Virus record (IMG/VR): IMGVR_UViG_3300049492_000076
Coordinates: 1-24,189 of that record
Strand: one strand, 5' to 3'
Length of the DNA: 24,189 bases
DNA from: a virus
Lineage: Duplodnaviria; Caudoviricetes
This document shows, piece by piece, positions 1,551 to 21,372 of this stretch. Positions within the stretch are counted from its first letter, which is position 1, and the number at the start of each line of letters is the position of its first letter. The notes below the pieces were generated by a model. The model ran no database searches, was not told where the DNA came from, and saw nothing but the letters and a program-made list of their open reading frames with translations. The position numbers were made by a program, and so were the translations under genes.

Positions 1551-1566
1551 GAATGATTTCGATTAA
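1400..1566 (+). ncRNA. putative TnpB omegaRNA (reRNA) overlapping the tnpB 3' end, plus about 20 nt of flank-derived guide
   Basis: Typical 3' sequence ACGCCTGTGGA...GAAGCAGGAA; GNRA-capped hairpins GTCG-GTGA-CGAC (1470-1481) and AGCGAcGC-GAAA-GCaTCGCT (1513-1532). omegaRNA location follows established TnpB biology; ends are approximate. Confidence 0.6.
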
Positions 1567-3706
1567 CCAGGCAGTGATAAACCAAACAGCGTTCGAAAAA
1601 GTAGCTGCGTTCGAATTGGAGAAAGACATCTCCACCTGGAACAAAGAAATCACAGATCAGTTCATGAGCCAAGTTACATACTTGCCTCAAGGGACTGAGA
1701 CAGACATTGCCATCTCAGAGATTGATGAGAACAATGGATACGCAAAAGGAAGTGTTGTTGCCTGGTTGGGCAAGACGCGAATCAATTTCCCCATCATAGT
1801 AAACAACTTCAAGCTCGCTCCTTTCGATGTGTTTGTGGCCAAAGAAGAGAAGGATGGCCAATCCGTATTCTTGCCAGCAAACGAGCAGAACGTATCCAGG
1901 GTACTGTATCAGCAAGGTCTTGGTATTGTTGACAACTCTAAACCAACCAGCATGATCGAGGGAATCAAACAACCCGGCAACATCGGGCCAAAACAGTCCG
2001 TTCCATTAACCACAATGAACGAGCAGTTCGAAGTTCTCAAGATGTCCTCAGCCATGGCTACTAAAGACGACATGATGAAGCTAGCCGACTGTCTGAATAA
2101 GAACACTGGCATGCCAGAGATGTTCTACCAAAACAGCGGAAACCACCTGCACAACACCATCACTCAGGTTTTATCAAACGTATCGACACCAAGGACGCAG
2201 ACCATTGGCAATCTTGACTTGGGTGGAATTGTGGAAGCTAAGCAGTCGGTCGCCTTGGTTGATTCAGAGCTGTTCAATGCGGACTCCATGTCCCCTTTGT
2301 TGCCTGGAGATGTGGCTGAGTTGCGCATGCACTCATTCCCAACCATGGAAGACTTCCTCGAAATGTCCAGCAAAGATGATGGAAAGCTCATGATTGCCAA
2401 GTCTGGCAAACCTATCACAGGAGTAATCATCGCCAAGTGCGAGATGCCTGAAGACAGGAATTTTATTTCATCGTCGTCACATCCAGGTGAAGAGAAAAAG
2501 AAAGAAAAAGTACCACAAATATTTCTCTCATCCTGCGGAAAATATGTTGCAGAGTTCGAAGACTGGGATCGCACGAATGTAGGGTTCTATGGAACTAAAC
2601 TCGGTGTTAACCCTTCAGATATCATCGCTAATCTTCAGTCAAAAGTATTGGACGCATCCTCAACCAGCAACGTTCTGAATAAGATGGATGGGTCCGATAA
2701 GCTATTGGATGCCATGACGGATGCAAATCAAGGTCGAGAGAGATACAGGGGCGACTACCCATCACTGGCATCAACAGAGAGAACATTGTTGATATTCCCA
2801 ACCCCAACCGGATACAAAGCAACCTCGTTCTATGATGGATTCAGAACTGCCATAGTAAACGGCGCAAAGGTTCGTTACAACCAATCCATGGCCCTTATTC
2901 CATCCAATGTTTTGGACATCGTTAGAGTTAGCAAGGTATCCGATCCAGTATTGTCTGCGGCCGTAGGAAGTGCCAAAAACATATACCTCATACCAGAAGC
3001 GTCGATGATGATTTCCGAAAAATTCACAAAGCGCCTTGGAACGCAAGACTTTGTCACTCCATCACAAACAGTTAGAAAAGCCTACGAAGTGAGTGAACTT
3101 CCAAAAACAGAAGTTAGCGTGAGCGAAAAAGAAGCTGGATTCAAGCTATCCGGAGATGTCATTGCTCCAATAATGAAGCTCGCTGGAGTAAGCCCCAGTG
3201 ACACATTGTCTAGGCTCCATGTCAAAGCCATTCTCAGTGTTGCTGGCATAAGCAAGACCGCATCTGACATTGCCATGAAGACGGCGTTCAACAGAGCTGT
3301 ACTTGGCCAAAACCCAACAGCAACAATCTACGGAGGAAGGGCCGATTACTTGACCTCAAAGGGTCTTGATAAGAAGGCTTCTGATACTCGTCGCGCATCA
3401 GTGATAGAGAAGATTGCTACTGCACTAAAGAGAGATTTGATCAAGGAAGCAAGCATGTTGACAGACCCAGATTCTGTTGACGTGGTCCTATCACTCAACT
3501 TCATTAACAAAGACAACCTGCAGTCTTATGTTGAACAGATTCCAACAATGGAGAAGGTTCAAAGCAAGCTGGCTGGGATGTTGGTTGCCAGTAGAATGGG
3601 CTTGGCTGAAGTACCTGAGGGTGCTATAAAGAACTCCATATCTGGATTGACAGATGTTCTCGATGGCCTGAAGTTAGTTAAGTCATCTTTATCTAAAGGG
3701 ATCTAA
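1553..3706 (+). CDS. large hypothetical phage protein, probably virion/head-associated (717 aa)
   Basis: Long clean ORF with many K-x-A motifs (EKVAA, MKLAD, MKLAG, SKTAS, DKKAS, EKIAT, IKEAS) shared with the head-region proteins. Confidence 0.6.
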   Translation: MISINQAVINQTAFEKVAAFELEKDISTWNKEITDQFMSQVTYLPQGTETDIAISEIDENNGYAKGSVVAWLGKTRINFPIIVNNFKLAPFDVFVAKEEKDGQSVFLPANEQNVSRVLYQQGLGIVDNSKPTSMIEGIKQPGNIGPKQSVPLTTMNEQFEVLKMSSAMATKDDMMKLADCLNKNTGMPEMFYQNSGNHLHNTITQVLSNVSTPRTQTIGNLDLGGIVEAKQSVALVDSELFNADSMSPLLPGDVAELRMHSFPTMEDFLEMSSKDDGKLMIAKSGKPITGVIIAKCEMPEDRNFISSSSHPGEEKKKEKVPQIFLSSCGKYVAEFEDWDRTNVGFYGTKLGVNPSDIIANLQSKVLDASSTSNVLNKMDGSDKLLDAMTDANQGRERYRGDYPSLASTERTLLIFPTPTGYKATSFYDGFRTAIVNGAKVRYNQSMALIPSNVLDIVRVSKVSDPVLSAAVGSAKNIYLIPEASMMISEKFTKRLGTQDFVTPSQTVRKAYEVSELPKTEVSVSEKEAGFKLSGDVIAPIMKLAGVSPSDTLSRLHVKAILSVAGISKTASDIAMKTAFNRAVLGQNPTATIYGGRADYLTSKGLDKKASDTRRASVIEKIATALKRDLIKEASMLTDPDSVDVVLSLNFINKDNLQSYVEQIPTMEKVQSKLAGMLVASRMGLAEVPEGAIKNSISGLTDVLDGLKLVKSSLSKGI

Positions 3707-3710
3707 TACA

Positions 3711-4160
3711 ATGTCATCATGGGCTTACGTGATGCCTAGAACCATAATGAGCCCGAGCTTCGCGGCTTATCGAGAGTCGCTTGGCCTTGAAGGACCAGAG
3801 TCTAAAGAGTTGGTTACAGCCAGGCGAGCGCCCAAGGTCAATAGCGTTAACTCTATTCGTGGACTGGATAAAGTTGGCCATATTCAAATGGCTAAAAAAA
3901 GAGTCGCGAGAACTCTTCTTTATTTAGATAAACATGCTGGCCTTACAACAGATGTGATAATTCCAAAACTTTACAAGGAAGTTGATGAAATTGTCGAAAG
4001 TGTTGATGAAGGCTTGCCGCCTGATGGTGTTACTAAGATCCCTCGGCGCGTGCGAAAGAAATCGGATCCAATAAGGACCGAGATTAACGAGACAGATATG
4101 GGGAGTATGATTGCGGCGTCTCCCATTGAATTAACCCTTAATAGTGTATATAATGTTTAG
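3711..4160 (+). CDS. hypothetical protein (149 aa)
   Basis: Starts 4 nt after the previous stop; contains LDKHAG motif. Confidence 0.6.
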   Translation: MSSWAYVMPRTIMSPSFAAYRESLGLEGPESKELVTARRAPKVNSVNSIRGLDKVGHIQMAKKRVARTLLYLDKHAGLTTDVIIPKLYKEVDEIVESVDEGLPPDGVTKIPRRVRKKSDPIRTEINETDMGSMIAASPIELTLNSVYNV

Positions 4161-4166
4161 AATCTT

Positions 4167-4209
4167 CCCGCTGATATTAACCCTTGAGTTACTTGTTTTT
4201 GTCAGCGGG
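4167..4209. terminator. hairpin between convergent genes (possible terminator or processing site)
   Basis: CCCGCTGATA...TGTCAGCGGG outer stem with inner TAAC/GTTA stem; fills the gap between convergent stops at 4160 and 4215; no clear U-tract. Confidence 0.45.
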
Positions 4210-4214
4210 CTATG

Positions 4215-4952
4215 TTAGCTTAAAACCGTGTTCAGAATAGCCTTCCTCCAGCTAGTAGGATTTAGCTTATTTTGGATTGCACTCATCAAGCAAGTTATTA
4301 CCATCCTTGTTATTTCCACAAGAGCGTGGACAAGCATAGATAAGATGCTTTTGAGCTTTTTTATCTCTTCCTGAAATGCTCGCTTAATGGTCACGTAAAG
4401 CAATCCAGCATTTCTTACTGTCGATTCCTGATCCAAGATTCGATCGTAGTGACTCTGTTCTAGATCTGGACCCCAAATGAAGTCATAGGCACCTTGGGCG
4501 TCCTTTAGGGTATCAAGATGATCTTTGTTGTAAACGCTCTTAAATACATTGGAGCATAAGTATATCCAATGCTCACGAACGATAGCGATCTCTTTTGGAT
4601 CGTGATGTTGCTCGGCATATTCCCATCCCTGATCTCTTATATCATAAAAGAGTTTGTAGTTAACCTTAATACCAAGCTTTTCTAACTTGGCGAAGAAGTC
4701 TGGATCCATTGGCATCACATCAATCGCTGTTCTTGTGATCTCGTCCAGTTCTGTCTTGAATCTATCCATCACCTTGCTCTTAACGGCATCCTGGTTATCC
4801 AATTCCTTCTTAACCTGAAGGATCTTGTTCTTAACGGAGTCAAAGGTTATGTCTCCAACGACACCTTTGACTTCTTCGACCTTATCTTTACCTAGCTTCT
4901 GAAATGCACCAAAAGTGCTAGAAGCTAATTTGATCAATGGCATCCAATTCAT
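4215..4952 (-). CDS. hypothetical helical protein (245 aa), last gene of the RT cassette
   Basis: SD AAGGAAGG and an A-rich leader before ATG; N-terminal LIKLASS motif; predicted helical/coiled-coil composition. Confidence 0.7.
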   Translation of the reverse strand: MNWMPLIKLASSTFGAFQKLGKDKVEEVKGVVGDITFDSVKNKILQVKKELDNQDAVKSKVMDRFKTELDEITRTAIDVMPMDPDFFAKLEKLGIKVNYKLFYDIRDQGWEYAEQHHDPKEIAIVREHWIYLCSNVFKSVYNKDHLDTLKDAQGAYDFIWGPDLEQSHYDRILDQESTVRNAGLLYVTIKRAFQEEIKKLKSILSMLVHALVEITRMVITCLMSAIQNKLNPTSWRKAILNTVLS

Positions 4953-4993
4953 TGGACCTTCCTTTTTGTTTTTTTTTGTTGGTGAAAATTGAT

Positions 4994-5136
4994 GAGACTG
5001 CGTTGAGATGTGATTTTACTCACATCTGATTTCAGGCTTTTGCTTCCTTTGGCTTCTCAACAGTTAGTACGAATACTAATCCATCGAATCGTCCTTTGGT
5101 GACATCCGCCCTCTTATCCTTATTCAACACAGTCTC
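4994..5136 (-). ncRNA. candidate retron-like ncRNA (a1/a2-type closing inverted repeat)
   Basis: GAGACTGCGTTGA (4994-5006) is complementary to TCAACACAGTCTC (5124-5136) at 12/13 positions, and the mismatch is a G-U wobble on the minus strand. Internal hairpins AGATGTGA/TCACATCT (5006-5027) and UUAGUA-UUCG-UACUAA (5064-5079). Adjacent to a retron-type RT and RNase H. Confidence 0.55.
5032..5130 (-). CDS. unannotated small ORF, 32 aa (MLNKDKRADVTKGRFDGLVFVLTVEKPKEAKA)
   Basis: SD AAGGAG (5139-5134), then GTG (5130) and in-frame TTG (5127), open to TGA at 5034-5032; shorter than any ORF in the supplied track. Confidence 0.5.
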   Translation of the reverse strand: MLNKDKRADVTKGRFDGLVFVLTVEKPKEAKA

Positions 5137-5157
5137 CTTCCATTACTTCGTCACACG

Positions 5158-5790
5158 TCAATCAGCTGGGCAATTAAGACCACCTATCGCGTCTCTGACC
5201 AAGCGGTCGACAAACTTATTCCATTTGTCTCTCGAATGGCCCTTCACCCATTTGAATGATATGGAACGAAGTCTAGCGACTAAGCCCTCTATATTCATCC
5301 AAAGGTCGGAGTTGATCACGGGTCTTTTGTTTGTCCTCTGGTATCCATTAGACTTCCATAACGGAAGATTGTTTTTGAAATTATCAGTAACGTATTTGCT
5401 ATCACAATTTATAATGAGAGCGACATCTTCTGGCTCTACGCCAAACAGCTTTCGCGAGTTCTCTACATTAAACTCGATAGCCTTCAGTACAGCCATCAGC
5501 TCGGATCTGTTGGGAGTGGTGTTCTCGATGGCTCCGAAATTATGGGCCGAGAGGTTGATTCCGTCGACATATCCGAAGGTGATGAATCCCCAGGACCCTG
5601 AACTTCCACAGCAGCTTCCGTCTGTGTAACAGTTAACGACTGAGCATCTGTACTTTCCATTTCTGGAAGCGGTGGAGGAAGGGATTGAGATTTCAGCCTC
5701 TCCGCCCTCCTTTGCTCTATCCGTCTCTTGGCCTCTGCTGCTGGCAGTATCGACACCTCTGCCCTTCTCAGGGCGTCCATCATTCTCCAT
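5158..5790 (-). CDS. rnhA: ribonuclease HI
   Basis: CYTDGSC, TPNRSELMAV, NCDSKYV, WKSNGY, VINSDLW, WVKGHS and WNKFVDRL motifs give an intact DEDD set plus His. Domain spans about 5158-5640. Start uncertain (ATG 5790, ATG 5961, or frameshift from the RT). Confidence 0.92.
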   Translation of the reverse strand: MENDGRPEKGRGVDTASSRGQETDRAKEGGEAEISIPSSTASRNGKYRCSVVNCYTDGSCCGSSGSWGFITFGYVDGINLSAHNFGAIENTTPNRSELMAVLKAIEFNVENSRKLFGVEPEDVALIINCDSKYVTDNFKNNLPLWKSNGYQRTNKRPVINSDLWMNIEGLVARLRSISFKWVKGHSRDKWNKFVDRLVRDAIGGLNCPAD

Positions 5791-6851
5791 GCATGACTCT
5801 TCTGTGCTGACGCCACGAAGGATACGTGACCCCTTAGCTCCATGAGCCGTTGTTCTGTTAGAAGCTCCGGCTCCCTCACCGTCGCCTGATGTACTGCTGC
5901 TCGTAATCTCCTCCTTTCTTTGCGTGGTACACCAACCTTGTCTTTCATAACAAGTCCGCATATCCGCATCCGTTCGTTCCTAGACTTAATTTCTGTTTTA
6001 TCCGTGTTGATGGTGAACCCAAAGGCATTCAACAATTTTTTAGCTCTTTTATAAACCGCATCAAACAACTGCTCCTTGTTTAATACCTTGCTACTAAAAG
6101 CTAGATCGTCGGCATATCTAGTGTAAGTTATGCCAAGCCCCTTGCAGTACTCTGTAGTGTTTTTATCGAACCCTCGCATCACCAGGTTGGATATCTTCGG
6201 AGATGTCGCAAACCCTTGAGGGGTGTATCCATTGTAAGTTACAGAGTTTATTATTCTTTTGAATATCGAATTGAATTCTTTATCAGCGTCGTAACCAGGC
6301 ATGAACATAGACTTGATTTCTTCGCACACATAAGGATACTTGCCAGCAACCTTGTTCTCATACAATGATGGACTGCACCTTCCATCCTGCATTCTGCTTT
6401 TATAGATACAGTTCTGGCAAACAACCTTATTCCCAAAGAACACATTCCTGAGCATGTCTTCATTGATAGTATCGAAGAAGTCCTTCAGATCTATTGTTAA
6501 CAAAGACATTGCACCGACATGCATTTGAGCATTACCTACAATACTCCTGCCTTCTACAAATCCAAAAGCAGCATCGTGCTCCCTAAACTTATTAAGAAAC
6601 TTCCATGTGATGAATTTATGCAAGACCCTCAATTGCCTATCGGCTATTGTGATCTTGCGAGTCTTTCCATTTGGTTTTTTTAGCTCTAGGGTTCGGATGT
6701 GTGTGTTTTTGTCTTCCAGGATCTCGTCCACTTTATCGAGTGGTCTCCCGAACATTTGGGAGGACGAGAACAGCGAGTTATCGCTCAGTGTTTCTTGTAG
6801 AGAAAGTCTTGCTCTAGCCTCTTCCTTCGATTTGTCGTAGATCCTTGTCAT
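5496..6851 (-). CDS. retron-type reverse transcriptase
   Basis: KKPNGKTRKI, AFGFVEGRSIVGNAQMH (retron region-X NAxxH), IDLKDFF, PQGFATSPKISN, YTRYADDLAFS, GFTINTDKT, RICGL (variant of region-Y VTG); SD AAAGGAAA before ATG. Confidence 0.92.
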   Translation of the reverse strand: MTRIYDKSKEEARARLSLQETLSDNSLFSSSQMFGRPLDKVDEILEDKNTHIRTLELKKPNGKTRKITIADRQLRVLHKFITWKFLNKFREHDAAFGFVEGRSIVGNAQMHVGAMSLLTIDLKDFFDTINEDMLRNVFFGNKVVCQNCIYKSRMQDGRCSPSLYENKVAGKYPYVCEEIKSMFMPGYDADKEFNSIFKRIINSVTYNGYTPQGFATSPKISNLVMRGFDKNTTEYCKGLGITYTRYADDLAFSSKVLNKEQLFDAVYKRAKKLLNAFGFTINTDKTEIKSRNERMRICGLVMKDKVGVPRKERRRLRAAVHQATVREPELLTEQRLMELRGHVSFVASAQKSHAWRMMDALRRAEVSILPAAEAKRRIEQRRAERLKSQSLPPPLPEMESTDAQSLTVTQTEAAVEVQGPGDSSPSDMSTESTSRPIISEPSRTPLPTDPS

Positions 6852-7887
6852 CTTTTTCCTTTACCGCTAAAGCCCTGGCGTCAACCATGGTCTTAGCTTT
6901 GTTTTCGGTTAATATTGCCTTAGCAGATTCTTCGATAGGATCTGTCTCGTCTACTCCTAGCTTTTCCATTTCATACTCCTGGTTCAACTTGTTCAATACG
7001 TAATCAACAAAAGCATCAGTATCCTTCTTATCAATTACCCCATGAAAATAGTTGTCATACTTTGATCCAACAAATCCGAAATCAAGCTTGTCTATAGTTG
7101 ATTTAGATGAAGACCAGGGATTCTTCTCCAGCTCCACTATGGACACATTATTATTCTTTTGAGATATGCGTAAAAAGTATTTGCAATCACCATGCAAAGC
7201 CTCACAGTACTTAGGATACGACCAACCAAAGGGTTGGTGTAGTATCGACAATTCTTTTCCTATGAATGTGAGGCATTTACTAGACTTCCTCGCTCTTGAT
7301 ACCCATCCAGAAATAGACTCGTCACACTCAAGTGTTTTAACAATCAGATCCAAATCAAACTCACATCTTGATATCACTTCTATAGTCCTTGCGTAGGACA
7401 TAAGCGATGGAAATGTCTCTTCCATAAACACATACAGCGACTTCATCTTCGTCCCTCTAAAGGGAGAGAAGAACTCCTGAGCATTGGAGCAGAACTTAAC
7501 CAAAGATGACTTATGCATCGTCTTGCTGTTGAATGCTTTTCGGAAAGAGTCGAGGTTCTTCTCTGGTATCTTGCCTTGGTTAAATTTAAAGGCCAGGGAT
7601 GTTAGGCTGTCATTAGCGAACAATACAGACCCATCTATTATCTTCTCGTGTAGTTCCTTATTGAACAGGTTTGATACCTGTGTAACACATGGATCTTTTA
7701 TCAATGGCATTCCAATAAACCTCTTAGACTGGTCAGAGTCACTTATAGACAGCGCCCTTTCCCTCAACTCAGTCTCTGGTGTTAATGGGTTAAAAAATTG
7801 GAATCTCCAAACCTTCGATTTGGTTTGGTTCAGCAACATTGCCGATGCAACTAAAGCATCGGGAGATGTTGTGGAAATAATGAGCAT
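6814..7887 (-). CDS. hypothetical protein, possibly a degenerate DHH-like phosphoesterase fold
   Basis: SD AAAGGGG before ATG 7887; overlaps the RT start by 38 nt. N-terminus IISTTSPDALVASAMLL resembles DHH motif 1, but no DHH triad is visible. Confidence 0.55.
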   Translation of the reverse strand: MLIISTTSPDALVASAMLLNQTKSKVWRFQFFNPLTPETELRERALSISDSDQSKRFIGMPLIKDPCVTQVSNLFNKELHEKIIDGSVLFANDSLTSLAFKFNQGKIPEKNLDSFRKAFNSKTMHKSSLVKFCSNAQEFFSPFRGTKMKSLYVFMEETFPSLMSYARTIEVISRCEFDLDLIVKTLECDESISGWVSRARKSSKCLTFIGKELSILHQPFGWSYPKYCEALHGDCKYFLRISQKNNNVSIVELEKNPWSSSKSTIDKLDFGFVGSKYDNYFHGVIDKKDTDAFVDYVLNKLNQEYEMEKLGVDETDPIEESAKAILTENKAKTMVDARALAVKEKDDKDLRQIEGRG

Positions 7888-7963
7888 TAGCAACCCCTTT
7901 CACCATTGGTTAAATTACCCGTACAATAATGTGATTTCAGGTTTGTTGAAAAACTAACAGGAT

Positions 7964-8452
7964 TTAGTCTTGAGATTCTTGATTTAGTCTTTCGTCAATC
8001 TCGCTTTTGGCCTTATGAACCAACATACCGTTTAGGTATCGTTGGGTGAAAGGTAGCGCAACAACCGCGGCCGCCCTAGCTGCACTGGACCCCGACTGAG
8101 ACATCTCTCTCTCGAAAGCATCCGCAGCCCTCACTGCTGTCGTTATAGTTGATTGAGCATCTATCGGAATCTCTTTCATCAAATCCGGGGCTACGGGAAT
8201 AACCTCTTCTTTCTTTACTCGCTTAAGGAACTTCTCATAGGATTCACGCCGCTTGGGGCTCTCCGTACCATACGGAGTGGCTGCTCGTGCTCTAGCCATG
8301 GGGATAAAATTAGATAGGTCCCCACTGTCATACTCTTCTTCAGCGACCTTAGCTAACTCTGAGGTGAAACCTTTTCTAAAGCATTCCTCTAGGCTAGACC
8401 TAAAGAATGGTGCTGAAGATTGCATTTGGCGTATTGTTTCTAGGTTGTCCAT
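7964..8452 (-). CDS. hypothetical protein (162 aa) with head-targeting-like motif
   Basis: Contains GFTSELAKVA, matching the extended shared motif; TATAAT on the minus strand at about 8491-8496 upstream. Confidence 0.65.
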   Translation of the reverse strand: MDNLETIRQMQSSAPFFRSSLEECFRKGFTSELAKVAEEEYDSGDLSNFIPMARARAATPYGTESPKRRESYEKFLKRVKKEEVIPVAPDLMKEIPIDAQSTITTAVRAADAFEREMSQSGSSAARAAAVVALPFTQRYLNGMLVHKAKSEIDERLNQESQD

Positions 8453-8562
8453 GATATGAAAATAACTAAGATCGACTTACTGTCCGATCGATTATATGCA
8501 CAAGTGCGCAAAAAATCATATACTTTATGAAATATGAGTGGTGACGCCTACACGGTGGTTTA

Positions 8563-9636
8563 ATGGAATGTCCATTTAAGAAGTTTATTCAAGCCCATTA
8601 TTTCGCAGGGCAGCCCGTGCACAACACCATTGGGATATGTGGCATTTACGGGTATTTGACCACAACAGGAGAGGTGTCTAAATACTATGCGGAAATCTCC
8701 GACATCCTTCCGCAGGCCCTTCAGGACTTAATGGCCAATGGCGGTCACTTCGATTCCACCAACGACTCGCACTCGCAATGGCTAAAACACTTCGGCGTAT
8801 TCGAAGTATATGACTACATGTCCAGGCGCAAGATTAAGATGGACGACACCCCAGCCTATTTCAAATGGATAGAGGACATACTCTGGATGAATAAGCTTCC
8901 GGATGTTCAGACCGTGGTCAACATCCTGATGTTCAACGGGGAGCCAGACCATACCATATCCGGAATCATCTCATTCAAGTACAAACGAAAAGTAGGGGTT
9001 GATGCTTTAAGATTACACAGGGAGTTGTTTTGGAACTGCTTAATCCTTGATGCCAAATCGGCATTGTACTACTGCAAAAACTTCCATAGCAGCGCCCTTG
9101 TTATACGACAGATAACATCCGGAACCTGCGTGTTAAATACATCAGAGGAGCTTGAGAAGGCTATTACCAGTATCGCTTCAGGAGATGAGTATGGCGACGA
9201 TGGGAATAATGTCGGTGTTGTTTTTCAGGATCCAGAATACATCAAATGGAAAATAGGAGTACCTGACGCCAAGGTTCCAGACACAAGAGAGTTTCTTGAA
9301 GAGGTTAAGAAGTCATCCATATTCAAATTCCGTGAAGCATCCATGATCTCTCAAAGCATAGAGGTTGAAGAGAAGAAGGGGAATAATGCTGCACTTGGTG
9401 ATTTTAACGAGACTATAACAAAGAAGAGAAATACCGAAGAGCGAAGATCCAGAATGATGAAAGAATATCTGGACATGTTCATTAAGGCCGAGAAGGCAAT
9501 GCCAGAAAAGAAAGATGATACAGAGAACTTCTTCCAGAGATTGGATCAACTTGAAATGAACTTCGGTGGAGAGCGCCTGGCTGTTGCCACGGATCAGAAA
9601 GACCTGTTTGCCGATATAGTTGGCGATGTTAGATGA
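8563..9636 (+). CDS. hypothetical protein, positional candidate for terminase small subunit or packaging factor
   Basis: ATGA stop/start overlap with the large terminase; charged helical C-terminus. Function inferred from position only. Confidence 0.5.
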   Translation: MECPFKKFIQAHYFAGQPVHNTIGICGIYGYLTTTGEVSKYYAEISDILPQALQDLMANGGHFDSTNDSHSQWLKHFGVFEVYDYMSRRKIKMDDTPAYFKWIEDILWMNKLPDVQTVVNILMFNGEPDHTISGIISFKYKRKVGVDALRLHRELFWNCLILDAKSALYYCKNFHSSALVIRQITSGTCVLNTSEELEKAITSIASGDEYGDDGNNVGVVFQDPEYIKWKIGVPDAKVPDTREFLEEVKKSSIFKFREASMISQSIEVEEKKGNNAALGDFNETITKKRNTEERRSRMMKEYLDMFIKAEKAMPEKKDDTENFFQRLDQLEMNFGGERLAVATDQKDLFADIVGDVR

Positions 9637-11288
9637 AAGCTTATAAGCCACACAACTTCGCCCAGGCAATATTCCAATTAAACGGAATGCCTCTTCAGAT
9701 GCCTAAAGAGTCGATGCATCACCTGTGGCCCATCTACGACCAGCCAAGCAGATCGTTATTGCTAAAGTTCGGAAGACAGACTCATAAGTCTTCAACAATG
9801 GGTTATACAATAGCTTTGCCTTGCTTAAGATACAGGCATTACCATTCGCTTTATGTGGCACCAACAGGTAATCAAGTGTCTGTATTCTCAACAGATAAAT
9901 TGAATGGCGCACTCAGAGGGTCCGCAACCATTGACCGTGAGTTTATGGATACGGAGACAAAAGACCAGGTTGGGTACAAAGAATTACGTAATGGCTCCAA
10001 GATGTATTTACGCTCCGCATTCCATACTGCTGATGCCATTCGCGGTATTTCTGCGGACAGTACGAGCATCGATGAGATACAGGATATTATTAGCGATCAC
10101 ATCCCTGTTATCGAACAGTGCATGTCTCATAGCCTAGCTAAATGGGAACACATGCAGAAGACATTCCCGGATTTACCAATGCATCTATTTAACCATAAGA
10201 TGTATGCGGGCACTCCCAAGACTGCCGAGAATACGCTTGAGAGATATTGGAACAAGTCAACTAAAACCGAGTGGATCATTAAATGCCTGGCATGCAATAA
10301 ACACAACTACATCGATGATAAGAATGTTGGTCCAACTTGCTTGATATGCAGAGCTTGTAGTCGCCCTATCTATTATGAGAATGGGCAATGGGTTCGTATG
10401 AATGAGAAGGGTGTGATTGATGGATACAGATTGCCACAGGTTGTTTTGAATTGGGTTAACAATCGCAATCATCCCGAGGTGTGGTTTGAAAACGTAATAA
10501 AACCCAGGCAGTTATACACCGAAGAGAAGTTCTTCAATGAGTGTTTGGCCCTGCCTTATGCTAATGCTAGAAACCCTTTGTCCAGAGCCGAGATGGAGGC
10601 GTGCTGCAAGTCTTACAGATTTGTAGAGCCCGGGCAACTTAATAACGTGACAATGGGCTCTAAGCTTTATGCCGGTATCGACTGGGGCAAAGGTGATATG
10701 GCGCAGGGTACGTCATACTCTCACTTGTGGATTGGTGGATTCTACGGCAATGTGTTCAAGATAGTATTCGCTAAGAAGTACACGGGAAAGATGTCAGATC
10801 CAATTGAACAGATGAAGGATATGATTAACATCATAAATCAGTTCAGAGTTGACATGACCATAGCCGATAGTGGCGACGGTAGAACATCGAATGCATTCAT
10901 GGTTAAAGCCCTTGGGGCAATGCGATTCGCTGAAGTTTATGAGCATGGAACAATGGCTAAAAAAGTTAATTGGAAATCAGACCAAGGCCTCTATCTCATA
11001 AATAGAACATTATACATGACCGATGTGATGATGGAGATCAAGAGGCAGCAGATAGAGTTCCCGTGCGTAGAGGACATGGATTCATTCATCCCTGATTTCA
11101 CCAATATTTACGAAGAGTACAGCGAAGCTACCCGCATGAAGAAGTACGACCATAACCAACCAGATGATGGGTTTCATGCGTACATGTTCTGTAGATTTGC
11201 AGCAGGCCTAAGGCGTGGTGAGTACAATGGATTCTTGATGGAAGCCAAAGCTGACAAGAAGTCGGCCAATGCGCCAATATCAATGTGA
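9633..11288 (+). CDS. terL: terminase large subunit (lambda GpA-like)
   Basis: Walker A-like LKFGRQTHKS, YVAPT, RGISAD..IDEIQD (Walker B), AGTPK coupling motif, CxxC pairs, RNase H-fold nuclease GIDWG...IADSG...PDDGFHA. Confidence 0.9.
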   Translation: MKAYKPHNFAQAIFQLNGMPLQMPKESMHHLWPIYDQPSRSLLLKFGRQTHKSSTMGYTIALPCLRYRHYHSLYVAPTGNQVSVFSTDKLNGALRGSATIDREFMDTETKDQVGYKELRNGSKMYLRSAFHTADAIRGISADSTSIDEIQDIISDHIPVIEQCMSHSLAKWEHMQKTFPDLPMHLFNHKMYAGTPKTAENTLERYWNKSTKTEWIIKCLACNKHNYIDDKNVGPTCLICRACSRPIYYENGQWVRMNEKGVIDGYRLPQVVLNWVNNRNHPEVWFENVIKPRQLYTEEKFFNECLALPYANARNPLSRAEMEACCKSYRFVEPGQLNNVTMGSKLYAGIDWGKGDMAQGTSYSHLWIGGFYGNVFKIVFAKKYTGKMSDPIEQMKDMINIINQFRVDMTIADSGDGRTSNAFMVKALGAMRFAEVYEHGTMAKKVNWKSDQGLYLINRTLYMTDVMMEIKRQQIEFPCVEDMDSFIPDFTNIYEEYSEATRMKKYDHNQPDDGFHAYMFCRFAAGLRRGEYNGFLMEAKADKKSANAPISM

Positions 11289-12046: not shown

Positions 12047-12406
12047 ATGCCATTCAAATCTAAAGCACAAATGCGGTTATTTAAAGCCAAAGAGGCCAAT
12101 GGGGAATTGCCAAAAGGCACTTACGACCAATGGTTGAAAGAAACACCCTCAATTGACGCTCTCCCAGAAAAGGTGGCTGAGCTTATGCCCTCGTTCTTCG
12201 ACGAGATGTCCAAACTGGCATCCAAGATACCAATGTCAATAAGCAAGCCTGTTGTAACAAAAAGAAAGTTACCTCACAAAAGATTGATAACCACAGAAGA
12301 GAGAATAGATCAAGCTACCAAGCCTGCTGTTACAGACACGATTATAAATAGAAATAAGAACGTAGCTAGACGGCGAGGGGTGGAAGTATCCCAGGCTTTT
12401 AATTAG
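12047..12406 (+). CDS. hypothetical phage protein (MPFKSKAQ N-terminus) with shared motif
   Basis: SD GAGG; contains SFFDEMSKLA; basic C-terminus. Confidence 0.75.
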   Translation: MPFKSKAQMRLFKAKEANGELPKGTYDQWLKETPSIDALPEKVAELMPSFFDEMSKLASKIPMSISKPVVTKRKLPHKRLITTEERIDQATKPAVTDTIINRNKNVARRRGVEVSQAFN

Positions 12407-12830
12407 GCAGGATTATTCCACCAGGAGATCTGCGCTCCCTCATTGGCATAATCTCATTAGCATAACCCCTGGCATCCACTAGCAATGATTCTTGTTCAAG
12501 AGACACCAAGTCCTCTCCACCGACATGACCGGCAGACTCTTCGAGAATCTCTTTGATTGTCTTGTCGAATACCGCTTCGTACCTAGCCACAGATCGTTGC
12601 AATTCACCGAGTGGGGCCAACCTGAACTCTCGGATTAAATTGGCTTTGGCTGCATCGATAGATCCGGCCATCAGTCTGTTCTTTGTGGGGCTTCTGTTGA
12701 GCATAAACTCAATCATTTGGGATATAGCCGACTTGAAGATAAGTTCAAGAAGCTCGATCTTATCTGTACCTGGCTTTGCCTCGGCCAGCCACTTGGGCAA
12801 ATCTTTAACTAAGTCATTTCCGTCTTGCAT
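12399..12830 (-). CDS. hypothetical protein (about 143 aa)
   Basis: SD AAGGAAAGG before ATG 12830; a promoter-like TTGCGA-N18-TATTTT overlaps the upstream TTG start given in the track. Confidence 0.65.
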   Translation of the reverse strand: MQDGNDLVKDLPKWLAEAKPGTDKIELLELIFKSAISQMIEFMLNRSPTKNRLMAGSIDAAKANLIREFRLAPLGELQRSVARYEAVFDKTIKEILEESAGHVGGEDLVSLEQESLLVDARGYANEIMPMRERRSPGGIILPN

Positions 12831-12965
12831 GGTAAGCGTCACCTTTCCTTTTGCTTTCAAAAATAGTTCCAAACAATCATTGTTCGCAAATCCTTTGTGT
12901 AGAAGGGGTAAATAGAGCTATTTTTAAATTATAGAGAATTTTGTTTACAACAGACGGCGGGGAAT

Positions 12966-13652
12966 ATGATTCCAAAAAGTTTTGGCGACGAACTAATAAA
13001 AACTGCTGGCATGTGGGATGTTCTTGGTAGGATGACAACCAGCACTAGAGCGCGTCGCGCCATGGAAGAACTTCGTGGCGATAGAAAGATTTTTCATGGA
13101 GGACTTGGGGCTTTTGTTGATAGCTTCAGCAATGTGCATGGTAAAGCTCGCGCCGGTTTGGCCGCAAGACAGGGTAAGAAGCTGTTGGACCAGGCCACAA
13201 GCTATTACAATGATGCTAAGGGCGGATTGTCAGGAGTGTTCGATTCATTGAAAGGTGGACATGCCGCCATTAAAGCAAAAGAACGAGAGTTAGGAAGGTC
13301 ATTGTCCTTCGCCGAGAAGTCTCAATTGAATTCCGGTAACATGAAAAGTTTAGGTGAAAGTGCTCGCAAGGTTATGGGTGTGTTTGGTGACAAAAACAGG
13401 AACTTAGAATTTATGGAGCGCGCCGGTAAAGCTAAATCATCCTTTACTAACGCTTTGCATCCCGAAAACACTCTTGTTGGAAAATCAATCAAGGGTGCCA
13501 AGGTCGGAGCGGGTGGACTTGCTGGTGCTGGCGTTATTGGTGCTGGAACGATAGGATACGATGCGGTTACTAGAGATCCTTCCTTGTTGTACAACGCTGG
13601 GATGGGTGGTAATATTCGCAAAGGTGCTGATTTCGCTGGAAGTTGGTATTGA
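12966..13652 (+). CDS. Gly-rich basic protein, putative internal virion protein
   Basis: N-terminal SFGDELIKTAG; C-terminal glycine-zipper GAGGLAGAGVIGAGTIG. Confidence 0.7.
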   Translation: MIPKSFGDELIKTAGMWDVLGRMTTSTRARRAMEELRGDRKIFHGGLGAFVDSFSNVHGKARAGLAARQGKKLLDQATSYYNDAKGGLSGVFDSLKGGHAAIKAKERELGRSLSFAEKSQLNSGNMKSLGESARKVMGVFGDKNRNLEFMERAGKAKSSFTNALHPENTLVGKSIKGAKVGAGGLAGAGVIGAGTIGYDAVTRDPSLLYNAGMGGNIRKGADFAGSWY

Positions 13653-13661
13653 GAGGGCAAA

Positions 13662-14516
13662 ATGACTGACGAGCAAATGATCGAAGTTATAAAGAAATCT
13701 TCTGAACTGGTCGCCAGGGAGTACCTATCCAATGGTACATCTATGAACGACCAGGTAATCCAAATATCCGAAGAGATGGGATTGAATGAGGAGATTATTC
13801 GTAGAATTTGCGAACAGGCAAATCAGGCTGTTTATTTAGCTTTATTCAACAACCCAGAAACCAACAGAAAAGACATCAAGTTCTGTATGGCGGAACCAGA
13901 AGAAATAATAAAGATTTTAACTGAAAGAGAGTCGAGCATGCAAGACTACGACATCGCTCCCACGGACTACAAGTCCGGCCTGGACGTAGCATCTGATAAA
14001 GCACCTTCCGTAAACATGGAAGAAATTATCAATGCGTCGATTCCTCAAATAAAGGTGGCCGCATTGGCTATCGGAAGAAGAGACATTGGTGTTTACCAAG
14101 GCTTCCTATCCAACCTAGAGGGATTGCGATCTGAAGAGATGCGCAATATTGAAAAGTTGGCTGAGCGTGTTCGCCGTGACACGACAATCATGGTATCCAA
14201 TAACGAGTCGATTGCCGACATAGCTAAGCTCGCATGCAGATACGTCAAATCGAAAGGCCTGTCCTTCGACAAGATTGCATCTGTTTACAACGAAATTCAC
14301 GATGAGCTTATCGCTTCCGGGTACAAGGTGAATGATGAGTTCACGAAGATATCCTCCGCTCCGTTGCGCATGGATTCCCCAGTATTCTTCCCTTCATTTG
14401 AGATCGCTCTTGGTTTTGAGAAGATTGCTGCGTTAACGGAAATGATAGCACGGGCTTCTGAAACTCTGTCGGCCTACAAAGAGATAACAGAAAAGGTGGA
14501 GTTGCATCTTGTCTAA
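13662..14516 (+). CDS. hypothetical helical head-region protein
   Basis: SD GAGGG; multiple K-x-A motifs (IKVAA, EKLAE, AKLAC, DKIAS, EKIAA). Confidence 0.7.
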   Translation: MTDEQMIEVIKKSSELVAREYLSNGTSMNDQVIQISEEMGLNEEIIRRICEQANQAVYLALFNNPETNRKDIKFCMAEPEEIIKILTERESSMQDYDIAPTDYKSGLDVASDKAPSVNMEEIINASIPQIKVAALAIGRRDIGVYQGFLSNLEGLRSEEMRNIEKLAERVRRDTTIMVSNNESIADIAKLACRYVKSKGLSFDKIASVYNEIHDELIASGYKVNDEFTKISSAPLRMDSPVFFPSFEIALGFEKIAALTEMIARASETLSAYKEITEKVELHLV

Positions 14517-14850
14517 ACCCAAATCAATCCTGCAATCTTTCATAAAAGAAGCAGGGGTGCTTTCGGCTACCTCTGATTTTGCTGGCAATGTTGCCGGCTC
14601 AATTGCAAGAGGTGCTTTACCTGTCGATAAGACTGCTCCAATCGGAGAAAAATTGATTGGTCTTGGTGTGAAGGGTGCTTTGGGTTATGGGACTTATAAG
14701 GGCCTCAGGTCCATAGCAGCAAAGCCCCCAACTCCTTTGGACTACACTTTCATGCAGCGCAACAGGCTACTTGCTGGGGAGATAAAACCCGAAGAAATTG
14801 CTGGCGATGAGCTAGCAAAAATTAAGAGATTAGGGATGAAGTATGAGTAG
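14509..14850 (+). CDS. small putative virion protein
   Basis: SD GGAG with TTG start, overlapping the previous gene; SFIKEAG motif; Gly-rich hydrophobic segment. Confidence 0.65.
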   Translation: MSKPKSILQSFIKEAGVLSATSDFAGNVAGSIARGALPVDKTAPIGEKLIGLGVKGALGYGTYKGLRSIAAKPPTPLDYTFMQRNRLLAGEIKPEEIAGDELAKIKRLGMKYE

Positions 14851-15091
14851 CTCCCTGAGGTCTTTTGGCGAAGAAATGAACAAGCTGGCATTCGGGCCTT
14901 TGCTGAACGCTGGGTTTAATGCACTCGGTGCAGTATCTGCGGTGAATGAGGGTAAGGCAAAGATGAAGGATGCTTTTAAAGCACCATCATCCGGAAATCT
15001 CCCTCTTCCCCATTGGAGTCAATTTGGGTATGGTCGCGGAAAAGTATTTCGCGGATCGAATCAACTATTTAGGACAAGGATCCCACTATGA
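14843..15091 (+). CDS. small putative virion protein
   Basis: Coupled start; N-terminal SFGEEMNKLA. Confidence 0.65.
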   Translation: MSSSLRSFGEEMNKLAFGPLLNAGFNALGAVSAVNEGKAKMKDAFKAPSSGNLPLPHWSQFGYGRGKVFRGSNQLFRTRIPL

Positions 15092-15732
15092 GTATTGAAG
15101 TTGGTAAAGTGAAAGATGCGGCACAAAGACTTCTCTACAAAGGCGAAATTACGCAGGAAGAGTTTGATTCTCTTGAGAAAGAGGCTGGTGCCGGTACTGT
15201 TCTAGGGTCTATAGGTGCAGGTCTATTAGGAGCGGCAGTCGCATCAAAACCAGTAGCAAACCTCGGGGCCGCCGCATTCAAAGCGGTACTCCCAAGCGGT
15301 CTCGCTCAGATAGCCTTCCCAAGAACAACCGGAATTATAGAAATGTTAGGCAAAGCGGCCATACCAACTGCGGTTGGATTAGGTTTGGCTGCCGCCGGAG
15401 CAAAAGGCTACGACTACCTAAAGCAGAAGATTGAAGTTTCTAGGACACAAAATCAGGTGCTGTCAGACCCAATGTTTGCCGACAAAGACCAAGATCAAGT
15501 CAAAAACTATTTTGATGTAGTGAAAGACTTCGCGCCAACCGCGGCATCAAACCCACTCGTAGCATCAGCGCTCGTAAATAAGATGATGAACTTCGGTGGA
15601 GTTGATCACAAGTTGGTTCAAGATTTGAGAAACATAGAAGATACCAAAAAAGAATACCTTGCCGATCAATTCACATCAGAAGCCATCAAATCATTAATGA
15701 AATCTGTTGTAGTTGGAAGTGGTGATGTCTAA
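15088..15732 (+). CDS. putative virion protein with Gly/Ala hydrophobic segments
   Basis: ATGA overlap; FDSLEKEAG followed by GAGTVLGSIGAGLLGAAVA and a second hydrophobic helix. Confidence 0.7.
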   Translation: MSIEVGKVKDAAQRLLYKGEITQEEFDSLEKEAGAGTVLGSIGAGLLGAAVASKPVANLGAAAFKAVLPSGLAQIAFPRTTGIIEMLGKAAIPTAVGLGLAAAGAKGYDYLKQKIEVSRTQNQVLSDPMFADKDQDQVKNYFDVVKDFAPTAASNPLVASALVNKMMNFGGVDHKLVQDLRNIEDTKKEYLADQFTSEAIKSLMKSVVVGSGDV

Positions 15733-15998
15733 TGTCGAAAGCATTTGACTCGGTTGCTGGAAAGATACTATCCTTTCCGTATCGTTATCCAAGAACAACT
15801 CTGGGTGTAATTGGTGGGGCTATTTTAGCAAAGGCTTTGTCAAATGTATCCAACATAGCTGCGGCTGGAAGCAGCATAGTTACCGCATCTCAGAATCAAC
15901 AGCAGAGCGAACTTCTCAGACAGCTTGTTAACAATACCAATCCTTCGGAGCAAATCGTAGGAACTCCAATAAACATGTCAGAATTGATGGGTGGTTAG
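15732..15998 (+). CDS. small protein with one hydrophobic helix
   Basis: TAATG overlap; TLGVIGGAILAKAL segment. Confidence 0.65.
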   Translation: MSKAFDSVAGKILSFPYRYPRTTLGVIGGAILAKALSNVSNIAAAGSSIVTASQNQQQSELLRQLVNNTNPSEQIVGTPINMSELMGG

Positions 15999-16001
15999 GG
16001 T

Positions 16002-16853
16002 ATGGGCGAAATTATCGGAACCCCTCTCATCAAGACTGCTGTTGACGGTGGATACAGTTCTTATCCAACATACAACGACTATCAGCCACAACAACAACAA
16101 GGATCCAATTGGGGTAAATCCGCATTAATGCTTGGACTTGCTGGTGGTGGTGCTTACGGCGCCCACAAGTTATACAAGGGCTTCACACAACCTAAAGTCG
16201 GATTCATCGGTAAGATGTTGGGTCACGCAAAAAACCCTCTGATTGCTGGAGCGATCGGACTTGCTGGATGGGGTGCTGCGAAATATGGCAAAGGCTTGGC
16301 TCGCGGTCTATCTACCATGAAAGAATTCAGACCTTTAGCCAAGTCTTTCATGGGTAATGAAGGGTATAGAAAATTTACAGAGGGTGCCACAGAGGTTAGT
16401 CCATTTGTTAAAGAGCAAGCAAGAAGACATTTCGGTCATAGGGGATCTGAGGGCTACGACGAGGTAATGAACGCTTGGAACAAAAGAAGAGAGTTTAGAT
16501 CTGGAAAGTCATTAGGTACGGTTCCTTTAAGCCAGAAGCAAAGAAACTTCCAACCTGGGGCAATGAAGCCAGCCCCGCGAAATTTAGATACCACTCCAGC
16601 TAGCGCTTGGGGTGCTGATGGAAAGAAAAGGGCTGATTGGAATCCTGATGATGTTGCCGGAACTCCAAACACAACGCCTAGTGCGTCTTTTGCGGCAACA
16701 GATAATTCTGCCGAAGTTGCTCGACAAGCCCGAGGTTTCGCCGATCCAAATGCCGCTAGTGAGACTATAGCAGCAACTCCAAAGACCGTTGGCGCCAAAC
16801 CAAAGAAGCAGCCAATCAATAAAACAAACCAAGGTAGTTGGGGTGGGGAATAA
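16002..16853 (+). CDS. Gly-rich protein with two hydrophobic segments and a disordered tail
   Basis: N-terminal LIKTAV; ALMLGLAGGGAYGA and LIAGAIGLAGWGAA. Confidence 0.7.
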   Translation: MGEIIGTPLIKTAVDGGYSSYPTYNDYQPQQQQGSNWGKSALMLGLAGGGAYGAHKLYKGFTQPKVGFIGKMLGHAKNPLIAGAIGLAGWGAAKYGKGLARGLSTMKEFRPLAKSFMGNEGYRKFTEGATEVSPFVKEQARRHFGHRGSEGYDEVMNAWNKRREFRSGKSLGTVPLSQKQRNFQPGAMKPAPRNLDTTPASAWGADGKKRADWNPDDVAGTPNTTPSASFAATDNSAEVARQARGFADPNAASETIAATPKTVGAKPKKQPINKTNQGSWGGE

Positions 16854-16855
16854 AC

Positions 16856-17371
16856 ATGTTAAACATTCAAGGCAAAAGAGTCATCAGCATGGCGTCCATC
16901 CAGTCTCTTGTGAAAAGAGCCGCAGATGAATCCGCAGCTCCAGCACCATCAAACACTAAGAGTGAGATGCTTGCCGAGCTCATTGTTGATATGCAAAAAG
17001 AGTATGGTGCTGCCATACAGTACATAAATCACGCCGCCATGATTGATGGCGCTGAGTTCGACTTCATCAGTCGCCACATACTTGAACATGCTCAAGAAGA
17101 GTTCGATCATGCTAAAGCTTTGGCTGACCGCATCCAGTTCTTGGGTGGAAATCCCGCCATAACCATTGAGACCGTTAAGGTGTCTGGTTCGGCGATAGAG
17201 ATGCTTAAGCAGGACCTAGAAGGCGAGAATGATGCTATCGCTCGTTATCGCAAGCGTATTGTTCAGGCTGAGTCTATTGGTGATTTTGGAACGAGCGAGT
17301 TGATTCGCGGAATATTGGCTGACGAAGAGAGTCATAAGAATGAACTTCAGACAACATTAAGAATGAGGTAA
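16856..17371 (+). CDS. ferritin-like di-iron protein (bacterioferritin-like)
   Basis: EYGAAIQY, EEFDHA, ADRIQFLGG.P, DLEGENDAI..Y, GD..T.ELI..ILADEESH give a complete E/ExxH/E/ExxH ferroxidase set. Start uncertain (16856 or 16889). Confidence 0.9.
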   Translation: MLNIQGKRVISMASIQSLVKRAADESAAPAPSNTKSEMLAELIVDMQKEYGAAIQYINHAAMIDGAEFDFISRHILEHAQEEFDHAKALADRIQFLGGNPAITIETVKVSGSAIEMLKQDLEGENDAIARYRKRIVQAESIGDFGTSELIRGILADEESHKNELQTTLRMR

Positions 17372-17373
17372 TT

Positions 17374-17970
17374 GTGGTAAGTCCGTTATTAGGCATCAAA
17401 GGTCAAGTCGCCGGATTGATTAGAGGCGCTGCCGAATCCTCTTCCAACCAAGGGGCTTTAGACGCCATGGTTGAAACCGTGGCATCGCCAGAGGTTCAAA
17501 GTAGGATACATAATGCCTTGAACCCGGACGACACTACCGAGATAAGAAAAAAAACACTTGAGGCTGTAGATGAGATTTTGAGTGGCCCAAAACCACCTAA
17601 CTTCTTTTCGAAAAACAAGGGTTTCATACTGGCCGGAGTTCCTGTTGCCAGTGGTCTTGCTGGGATTTACGCATCCATGAAGTCGTCCGCAGCAGCCAAT
17701 ACCGCCGATCAGGCCATGAAAGCTGTGACGAGAGCCTCCATACCAGCATTTGCTGGGATCACCCTGGCAAGCCTTCTTGGAGCCGGATACCTCGGCAAAC
17801 AAATATTCATGGACAAGCAGGCTGACGGAGAATGGGATGAGGCTACTAAAGGAAGTGGTGGAAGCGGTGGTTTAGACCATCTCCGCTATAACATGCATGA
17901 GATCAGAACCATAAAAAAGACTGGCAGTATGAATAAGATTGCCGGCATTCCATGGGCGTTATTAAAATGA
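17374..17970 (+). CDS. putative membrane or virion protein (2 hydrophobic helices)
   Basis: GFILAGVPVASGLAGIYA and IPAFAGITLASLLGAGYLG; DKQAD and NKIAG motifs. Confidence 0.65.
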   Translation: MVSPLLGIKGQVAGLIRGAAESSSNQGALDAMVETVASPEVQSRIHNALNPDDTTEIRKKTLEAVDEILSGPKPPNFFSKNKGFILAGVPVASGLAGIYASMKSSAAANTADQAMKAVTRASIPAFAGITLASLLGAGYLGKQIFMDKQADGEWDEATKGSGGSGGLDHLRYNMHEIRTIKKTGSMNKIAGIPWALLK

Positions 17971-19766: not shown

Positions 19767-19771
19767 TTGAA

Positions 19772-19809
19772 TTGCGAACAAATGCCATACATGCCTATAT
19801 TTAGGGCTG
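19772..19809 (+). promoter_or_regulatory. promoter TTGCGA-N18-TATATT
   Basis: -35 at 19772-19777, -10 at 19796-19801; TATATTTAGRGCTG recurs at 23579-23592. Confidence 0.55.
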
Positions 19810-19842
19810 TAGAGGTTTAACACTCACTGGAGGAACAGGAAA

Positions 19843-20739: not shown

Positions 20740-20779
20740 GGCTGAGCATTTCGATGTTCTCCCTTATCGGAACAAACCT

Positions 20780-20798
20780 TGGGGTCACAAACCCCAAA
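20780..20798 (+). terminator. intergenic hairpin
   Basis: TTGGGGT-CACAA-ACCCCAA; no strong U-tract. Confidence 0.35.
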
Positions 20799-20831
20799 CT
20801 TACCCTTGGTTAACTCCTCGGGTAGAAAGTA

Positions 20832-21347
20832 TTGGAATCTCCAGTGAGTTCAAAGATCCAAAGGTTGATTAGGGAGGCCATCGAGGCTGGAAATGGTGCG
20901 ACTAAAATCGCATCTACCCATACATCATTATCTGAGATCGAGAAGGCAGCTGTGGGACTCAAGAAGATCGCCGGTCTTCCTCACGATCCTTTAACTTACC
21001 ATGCCTTTCAAGGGGTAATGAAAATCGCTTCCGAGAAGCTTGAAGAAGCAATAAGCTACATCAAGTCCAAAGAATGCGTTATAGATGGACTCCAAAAAGA
21101 GGCTGGGATTCAGGGTCTGGTGTTGGATATGGTTGACGTAGGCTTAATCGGTGAGCATGATGTCACGACCAAAACGGCAGAGCTTCTGGGAAAATCCCAG
21201 CAAGAGCTCGAAGTGATCCGTGAGGCCTCCAAAATGAGGAGTGCAGGCGGAAATGTGTATTTCAGTTCGGAGAAGACAGCTTCCGAACATATCTCCAGCG
21301 AACCTCAACGTGGGAAGCGCGAGATATTTTCATCTGTTTTTAATTAA
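20832..21347 (+). CDS. hypothetical head-assembly protein
   Basis: Dense K-x-A motifs (TKIAS, EKAAV, KKIAG, MKIAS, QKEAG, EKTAS); start uncertain. Confidence 0.65.
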   Translation: MESPVSSKIQRLIREAIEAGNGATKIASTHTSLSEIEKAAVGLKKIAGLPHDPLTYHAFQGVMKIASEKLEEAISYIKSKECVIDGLQKEAGIQGLVLDMVDVGLIGEHDVTTKTAELLGKSQQELEVIREASKMRSAGGNVYFSSEKTASEHISSEPQRGKREIFSSVFN

Positions 21348-21372
21348 CAAGTAAAGTCGAAAGGACTGAACA

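Follow-up and report, generated by a model that had tools for sequence, protein, structure and literature searches.

A divergent copy of a retron-type operon of large phages, with a candidate RNA template downstream of its reverse transcriptase

The window analysed here, a 24,189-nt fragment of the virus record IMGVR_UViG_3300049492_000076 (Caudoviricetes; ~13% complete), contains on its minus strand a compact gene run built around a reverse transcriptase (RT). The run belongs to a conserved, retron-type module of large phages, and the best reading of this module is a new retron-type variant passed vertically among phages. In the family, a promoter is followed by a DHH phosphoesterase, the RT, an RNase H in most loci, a short basic protein, an msr/msd-like RNA with covarying hairpins and a terminator. 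Related phages keep the RT together with the phosphoesterase, usually the RNase H, and the folded RNA, and thus they likely reverse-transcribe a small RNA for purposes of their own; that the family makes complementary DNA (cDNA) from the downstream RNA is the part we propose with good confidence. On balance, we take the window to hold a divergent copy of this operon, in which the RT likely copies a downstream RNA and the system likely guards against competing phages. Taken by itself, the guard function against co-infecting phages, argued by homology with all characterised retrons, is a tentative proposal.

The minus-strand run described in the original prediction is confirmed: it comprises a gene for a 357-aa protein (7887-6814), the RT gene (6851-5496, 451 aa), an RNase H frame with its stop at 5158 and a 245-aa open reading frame (ORF; 4952-4215). 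The RT gene's start overlaps the 357-aa gene and there is thus no noncoding stretch ahead of the RT, as had been claimed. The retron-type assignment of the RT is also borne out, by profile hidden Markov models (HMMs), fold search and phylogeny. The protein carries NAQMH in region X, YADD, and ICG in the VTG-like region Y, and its top HMMs are all retron models (best 202 bits; RT_VI model 138 bits). Its core, residues 1-364, is predicted with a local distance difference test score (pLDDT) of 95.6, and the 16 top-ranked PDB folds for this core are retron RTs, with template modelling scores (TM) of 0.60-0.66, compared with 0.52 for group II and 0.49 for the defence-associated RT (DRT) DRT2. A C-terminal tail of ~87 aa has no counterpart in relatives. 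An insert contains four invariant cysteines (C145, C148, C159 and C176), and the Pfam family LRV_FeS matches the RT weakly, below its cut-off. All 53 aligned RTs of the clade keep NAxxH, YADD and [IV]CG, with H111, YADD and C298 invariant.

A protein search with the RT returned 899 matches, 56 of them at E<1e-53 and the next at 1e-34, and the clade is monophyletic in a tree of 113 tips (37 tips, support 0.99). In a second tree of 83 sequences, where 16 of the 27 genome-derived outgroups are labelled, the closest neighbours of the clade, as its sister group, are the sampled NAxxH/VTG RTs, while group II, RT-Cas1 and DRT-like RTs lie apart; the trees assign it to no named retron clade. The phylogeny that had been called for thus places the RT among retron-like RTs (joint support 0.80), apart from group II. 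In both trees, the deepest branch of the clade is formed by the window RT together with relative P0002. The clade is absent from 50,697 phage records, where the best identity is 27%, and it is not among the 80 GTDB loci listed, in scans that covered 7/64 parts of the genomes and 5/64 of the metagenomes and are not proof of absence. Scans of viral contigs with the RT, the 245-aa ORF and the RT+P0002 pair, used as single-sequence queries, found no relative, so that no close relative's DNA is at hand for a covariation analysis of the window's RNA element. Tests for two other kinds of RT element came out negative. For a group II intron, the TIGR04416 score is 69 bits against a cut-off of 300 and Rfam gives no match; for a diversity-generating retroelement (DGR), no long repeat is present in 3700-8600 and the 3' half of the family RNA matches once per genome in 4/4 genomes. 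Separately, RTs of other branches occur on other viral contigs of 180-210 kb (L022, L023 and L295), that of L295 lying ~5.5 kb from a distant terminase, and a stretch inside the window's RT gene (6650-6501, minus strand) has a folding z of -7.2, calculated from 12 shuffles only.

The module is retained as a unit. Profile searches recover 20 viral and at least 7 metagenome loci of the RT clade, and these 27 loci contain 24 distinct RT C-termini. The predicted synteny of the RT with its upstream gene and RNase H is conserved: the orthologue of the 357-aa gene is present in 26/27 loci (truncated in one) and RNase H in 22/27. RNase H is cut off in one locus and missing from four others that have sufficient DNA, and in one it is degenerate; the description of the system as self-sufficient is therefore too strong. 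On contigs that are long enough, the module falls between the terminase pair and a 717-aa gene, a fixed site adjoining the terminase in phages of 164-208 kb. Three carriers are complete genomes of 164-186 kb with terminal repeats, and in each the RNase H of the module is the sole RNase H match. Tree distances of the RT and the terminase agree closely (rho 0.84; 105 pairs from 15 loci). A search with the terminase itself gave 36 close loci, of which 20 have the RT, 2 end within the DHH gene and 14 have <2.9 kb upstream, so the RT is carried by 20 of the 20 with enough upstream DNA; among 33 distant-terminase loci, a single one has an RT, and it is unrelated.

The 357-aa protein (6814..7887, minus strand), which had been listed as unknown, has a DHH/DHHA1 fold according to its orthologues, profile and predicted structure, and it is predicted to be catalytically dead; both the fold and the motif loss had been missed. 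The DHH family profile matches PggH (7d62) with an E of 2e-10, and the predicted structure of the window protein aligns with PggH at a TM of 0.51 (pLDDT 69). Pfam DHH is detected in 13 of the 19 aligned members, the window's being without it. As in other DHH/DHHA1 phosphodiesterases (PggH, the PAP phosphatase 8a8k, NrnA and RecJ), the fold is shared and the relatives have all catalytic motifs, whereas in the window copy the HxDxDG, D, DHH and GGGH motifs are all replaced and a C-terminal peptide is present. The window protein is the longest branch of the DHH tree, and the predicted dead branch is the divergent branch that the window represents. P0170, a full-length relative that is 33% identical, is equally without catalytic motifs; judged by these motifs, a dead protein is retained in this sister lineage. 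P0170 and P0002 each come from a 10,311-nt Logan contig, probably one and the same. In two further members, P0143 and P0144, the catalytic motifs are gone as well although both proteins resemble the main group, which makes repeated loss likely.

These losses bear on a counter-defence role, in which the cDNA would lure away retron proteins or DNA sensors of the host and active DHH copies would destroy short signalling nucleotides. The nearest solved DHH relatives are indeed pGpG and pAp phosphodiesterases, and the DHH motif is kept in 25/26 loci, yet catalysis appears to be lost in the window branch, P0143 and P0144, and the module is fixed, whereas anti-defence genes are usually patchy in distribution. 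We consider this role very improbable.

Within the family, the RNA lies downstream of the RT, as had been predicted from the window; in relatives it follows RNase H and a small ORF. This ORF encodes a basic, amphipathic protein of 40-85 aa, and an HMM built from 18 loci matches 24/27. The RNA that comes after it carries the motif CCCCGACCCCA in 22/27 loci (three of the others are truncated and two have a short variant), and the terminator is next. Two 5' hairpins covary, with two-sided changes in 12 of 14 pairs and a score that 0 of 500 shuffles reach, the structure being drawn from the same sequences. The RNAs span ~85 to 250 nt, and the divergent loci L010 and L268 retain the anatomy with a different sequence. 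Neither the window nor the RNAs of six relatives have a match in Rfam. Some variants stand apart. The minimal family RNA, ~85 nt, is found at L010 9223-9308, a locus without RNase H. In L006 9920-9988 and its relatives (alignment A5), a segment that precedes the C-rich motif can pair with either of two similar flanks at ~70% each and is a possible two-state switch; the predicted cDNA from an RNA of this type would carry two G-tracts. The C-rich motif pattern also occurs near 4001-4021 in L314, L315 and L316, one of which is a 288 kb contig; no gene of the module lies within 4 kb in these three.

Upstream of the DHH gene, the relatives share a promoter-like site with the motif GTTATT-N16-AATAAC followed by a -10-like box. 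A degenerate version at 7923..7960 on the minus strand is the window's top match (18.9 bits) to a weight matrix from nine relatives' sites, and five related genomes have 2-3 exact copies of the motif each, compared with 0-1 for a control pattern. At the other end of the DHH gene, we find a nested, in-frame peptide of 51 aa that had gone unnoticed (6814..6969, minus strand): it consists of the last 51 residues of the 357-aa ORF, beginning at MEK, with a CAGGAG ribosome site upstream of the ATG at 6969. The tail is kept in relatives, and in L010 and L017 the DHH gene stops ahead of it and the tail begins in another frame as a separate gene, suggesting that the MEK peptide is probably also made on its own. 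K[TES][GA] is present in 46 of 48 distinct tails and degenerate in the window's peptide. The related motif K-x-A-[SAG] occurs 52 times in 12,626 aa of the 717-aa gene family but once in 9,257 aa of RT and once in 8,383 aa of terminase.

These features, together with the inheritance of the module, are the basis of the main rival to the guard function, in which the cDNA would serve the phage's own infection cycle as a timer, as a regulator or as a molecule packed into the head. The fixed site and vertical inheritance fit such a role, the promoter belongs to a phage-wide class, and the motif of the MEK peptide is a variant of the one common in the 717-aa family. Against it, this motif is degenerate in the window's peptide and the link to virion targeting is itself conjectural, the 3' half of the family RNA has no second matching site in four related genomes, and catalysis by RNase H and DHH appears dispensable. 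We regard an own-cycle role as unlikely, though as the rival to be taken most seriously given the fixed inheritance.

Turning to the window's own candidate template, the inverted repeat that was said to bound a 143-nt element is real (5136-5124 / 5006-4994, 13 bp), and the minus strand of the whole window has only one other repeat of this kind. The element (4994..5136) folds with a z of -5.0 to -6.1, a value that 2 of 277 random 143-nt windows reach, and consists of the 13-bp closing stem, a G-U-rich 5' hairpin and a perfect 8-bp 3' hairpin. The strand polarity conveyed by these two hairpins is that of the family RNA. Within the element lies a basic 32-codon ORF (5032..5130, minus strand) whose position matches that of the family small-protein gene; its start codon falls within the 5' arm, and the stem covers the ribosome site and start codon. 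We give slightly better than even chances to 5136-4994 being the template of the window's copy.

The 245-aa ORF (ORF245; 4215..4952, same strand), which the original prediction had counted as a member of the system, is not borne out as such (0/27 loci). A protein search returns only itself, it is found in none of five related records, and it is probably a lineage-specific insertion outside the conserved module. ORF245 was dropped as an effector because it is not conserved. Beyond it, a second RNA candidate at 4160-3925 was set aside as the weaker of the two: a 149-aa ORF of the plus strand overlaps it, its fold is better on that strand, and neither RNA model matches it. The surrounding stretch (4160-3890) is structured and ends in a hairpin and TTTTTAGCCA, a tail found after the module in 12/18 relatives; the overlapping 149-aa ORF has weak codon bias and no relative was found for it. 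Two 18-nt arms, 5037-5020 and 3957-3940, are 83% complementary and could pair across ORF245, and repeats of this kind arise by chance in the region at similar length.

The claim of an intact RNase HI stands in part. The domain (5158..5961, minus strand, in the -1 frame of the RT, with YTDG at 5628 and its stop at 5158) matches Pfam RNase_H with an E of 8e-25 and retains all active-site residues (D, E, D, H, D). It has no normal start, however, and overlaps the RT tail out of frame: the RT frame overruns the domain by 43 codons, and YTDG, which lies 11-52 nt past the RT stop in 20 of 21 scorable relatives, is here 133 nt before the stop. The closest in-frame ATGs, at 5790 and 5961, have no clear ribosome site. 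Translation may start at ATG 5961 or ATG 5790, or may result from a frame change from the RT near 5630. Inspection of 5780-5630 by eye revealed no tandem slippery heptamer. Just ahead of YTDG, the residues of the RT frame fit the family's RNase H start within the top 1% of 13,418 random 4-mers, those of the RNase H frame at 47%; the former fit points to an RT-RNase H fusion that lost one base long ago. In conflict with this, the upstream part of the RNase H frame has no stop for 117 codons, compared with 5-59 in relatives (P ~0.001, synonymous shuffling), as would be expected if an overlapping start were under selection. The contigs show no indel at the RT/RNase H junction, and the sole covering run may be the window's own source. 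In two variant contigs of low depth, the differences listed (12 of 19) leave the RT residue unchanged at 9 of 11 affected codons and alter 10 of 10 codons in the other frame, with no stop; these contigs have a depth of 3-4 and may contain errors.

Such an RNase H frame could also mean that the window's copy is decaying, with a dead DHH protein, an RNase H severed by a one-base loss near 5630 and the family RNA lost, the element being a mere leader for the 32-codon ORF or ORF245. The fit of the RT-frame residues ahead of YTDG, the lack of an RNA model match, the long DHH branch and a closing stem that covers ribosome site and start codon would all fit decay. What speaks against it is that the dead DHH protein is full length in a relative of 33% identity, that the RT and RNase H retain their catalytic residues and both promoter and MEK start are preserved, and that the long open frame suggests selection for a rescued start. 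Decay appears quite improbable to us.

Our preferred reading, that the window holds a divergent cDNA-producing copy of the operon with a likely guard function, has to be set against a number of observations that weaken it. At the level of the RT, the support uniting the clade with other retron RTs is just 0.80, and DGR and abortive infection (Abi) RTs were not identified among the outgroups. For the module, fixed vertical inheritance is unlike that of typical defence cargo, and a housekeeping role fits at least as well. Moreover, 19 of the 20 RT-carrying loci found through the terminase were already known via the RT, and the terminase profile was built from RT carriers; this search thus shows no counter-example but is not an independent census, and 'core' status is not independently shown by it. 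The abnormal start of RNase H, with no start codon near the domain, also counts here. As for the family RNA, a G stands on each side of the closing stem in 15/18 relatives, but the test is loose, shifted controls giving 6, 12, 4 and 2 of 18. For its 5' half, the sense strand is the more stable form in 16/16; for its 3' half, complementary DNA is in 15/16, the latter preference dropping to 9/16 once the C-rich loop is removed. In the window's element, the family RNA was searched for as two half models, R1 and R2 (a full-length model could not be calibrated, and the 3' model has no base pairs), and neither finds a significant match; the best, at 8.9 bits and an E of 2.9, is the sixth-best of the 5' model and lies at 5148-5120, on the first 29 nt of the element. 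The element is without the CCCCGACCCCA motif, and the G-G register is available only at G5128, in an alternative register in which the inner stem opens. No homologue of the small protein was found in the window, the 32-codon ORF not being among the best 50 matches listed for the small-protein HMM. Finally, the cDNA, the RNA and their activity are all predicted from sequence, as are the steps of the mechanism.

With these reservations, we propose the following mechanism for a guard. A single transcript would start from the phage promoter at 7960. Priming would take place on the G where the closing stem begins, and the RT would copy the 3' half of the RNA, yielding a short RNA-linked DNA. The phage RNase H would remove the template and fix the stop point, as host RNase H1 does for bacterial retrons, and the RNA-linked DNA would be held in a complex with the DHH-fold protein. 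A co-infecting phage that disturbs the DNA would then release the effector. Because the RT, the RNA, the DHH fold and, for the most part, both small peptides are invariant, while DHH and RNase H catalysis appear to be dispensable in the family, the DHH-fold protein would act as a binding partner whose catalysis is not needed, and the small basic protein is the likelier effector. The same pattern might be read differently: a lineage of large phages may have turned a retron into one of its core genes, with a task outside defence, and the window's branch may have moved on further, its DHH protein serving purely as a scaffold, its RNA reshaped to surround a small gene and its RNase H produced within the RT gene, either from an overprinted start or through a frame change that gives a retrovirus-like RT-RNase H fusion. 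We hold this version to be improbable.

Read as a retron variant, the module shares with the bacterial retrons (Eco1/Ec86, Eco7/Ec78, Ec83, Eco2/Ec67, Eco8; types I-XIII) the RT fold with NAxxH, YADD and the VTG-like [IV]CG, as well as an operon partner gene, and the family RNA has in common with theirs the closing stem, the G, two short hairpins and long hairpins. It differs from them in an RNA placed after the last gene, the DHH partner, its own RNase HI, the four-cysteine insert and its status as a fixed gene of large phages, not patchy host cargo. The retrons described so far serve host defence and rely on the RNase H1 of the host. Type VI retrons (Vpa2, 10.1101/2025.10.22.683967; Sen3, 10.64898/2026.04.27.721009) are described, in the portions consulted, as having a small protein beside or inside the structured RNA, and the window's 32-codon ORF, with its start within the closing stem, recalls their hybrid RNA; unlike them, the module has no conserved helix-turn-helix gene, the RT_VI model ranks low, and the small ORF of relatives precedes the RNA. 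Retron RTs are likewise found in phage genomes on P2-like and Pf prophages (Klebsiella phage 4LV2017, Pseudomonas PfAC01); these are ~24% identical to the window RT and belong to small temperate phages. PADLOC gives no match for the 357-, 245- and 162-aa proteins or RNase H, and no partner of types I-XIII is identified. Across the titles and abstract openings searched, supplementary tables being outside the scope, we found no paper on the module, which upholds, for the literature covered, the earlier statement that no described retron type matches: none appears with a DHH and RNase H partner set. 'DHH' occurs 0 times in the main text on retron types I-XIII (PMC7736814), the supplementary tables, a possible place for these RTs, again lying outside the scope, and in the covered part of PMC13712802 the counts of DHH, RNase H and viral are all 0. 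Retron termination is reported, in the part of PMC8989520 consulted, to require RNase H1.

Around the module, the window encodes the terminase large subunit (9633-11288) and the head protease (17952-19766). On the plus strand, an IS605-family TnpB gene (330-1535; Pfam OrfB_IS605 and Cas12f1-like_TNB) has similar genes elsewhere in five related loci, and a ferritin-like gene lies amid the head genes (16856-17371). Twelve proteins chosen for a K-[TIVLQE]-A motif (1553-3706 and 12047-22343, plus strand) contain 44 copies of it in 3,251 aa, in many cases with S or G as the next residue; it is rare in the RT and terminase, has one copy at the N-terminus of ORF245 and is possibly a head-protease or targeting signal.

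If the proposed reading is true, the module would constitute a retron type not described before and, more clearly than any other case, would show phages putting multicopy single-stranded DNA (msDNA) to use for themselves. Its natural variants, with or without RNase H, with a live or dead DHH protein and with RNAs of ~85 to 250 nt, would form a series for probing msDNA beyond defence, and the operons may provide compact generators of single-stranded DNA that are independent of host RNase H.

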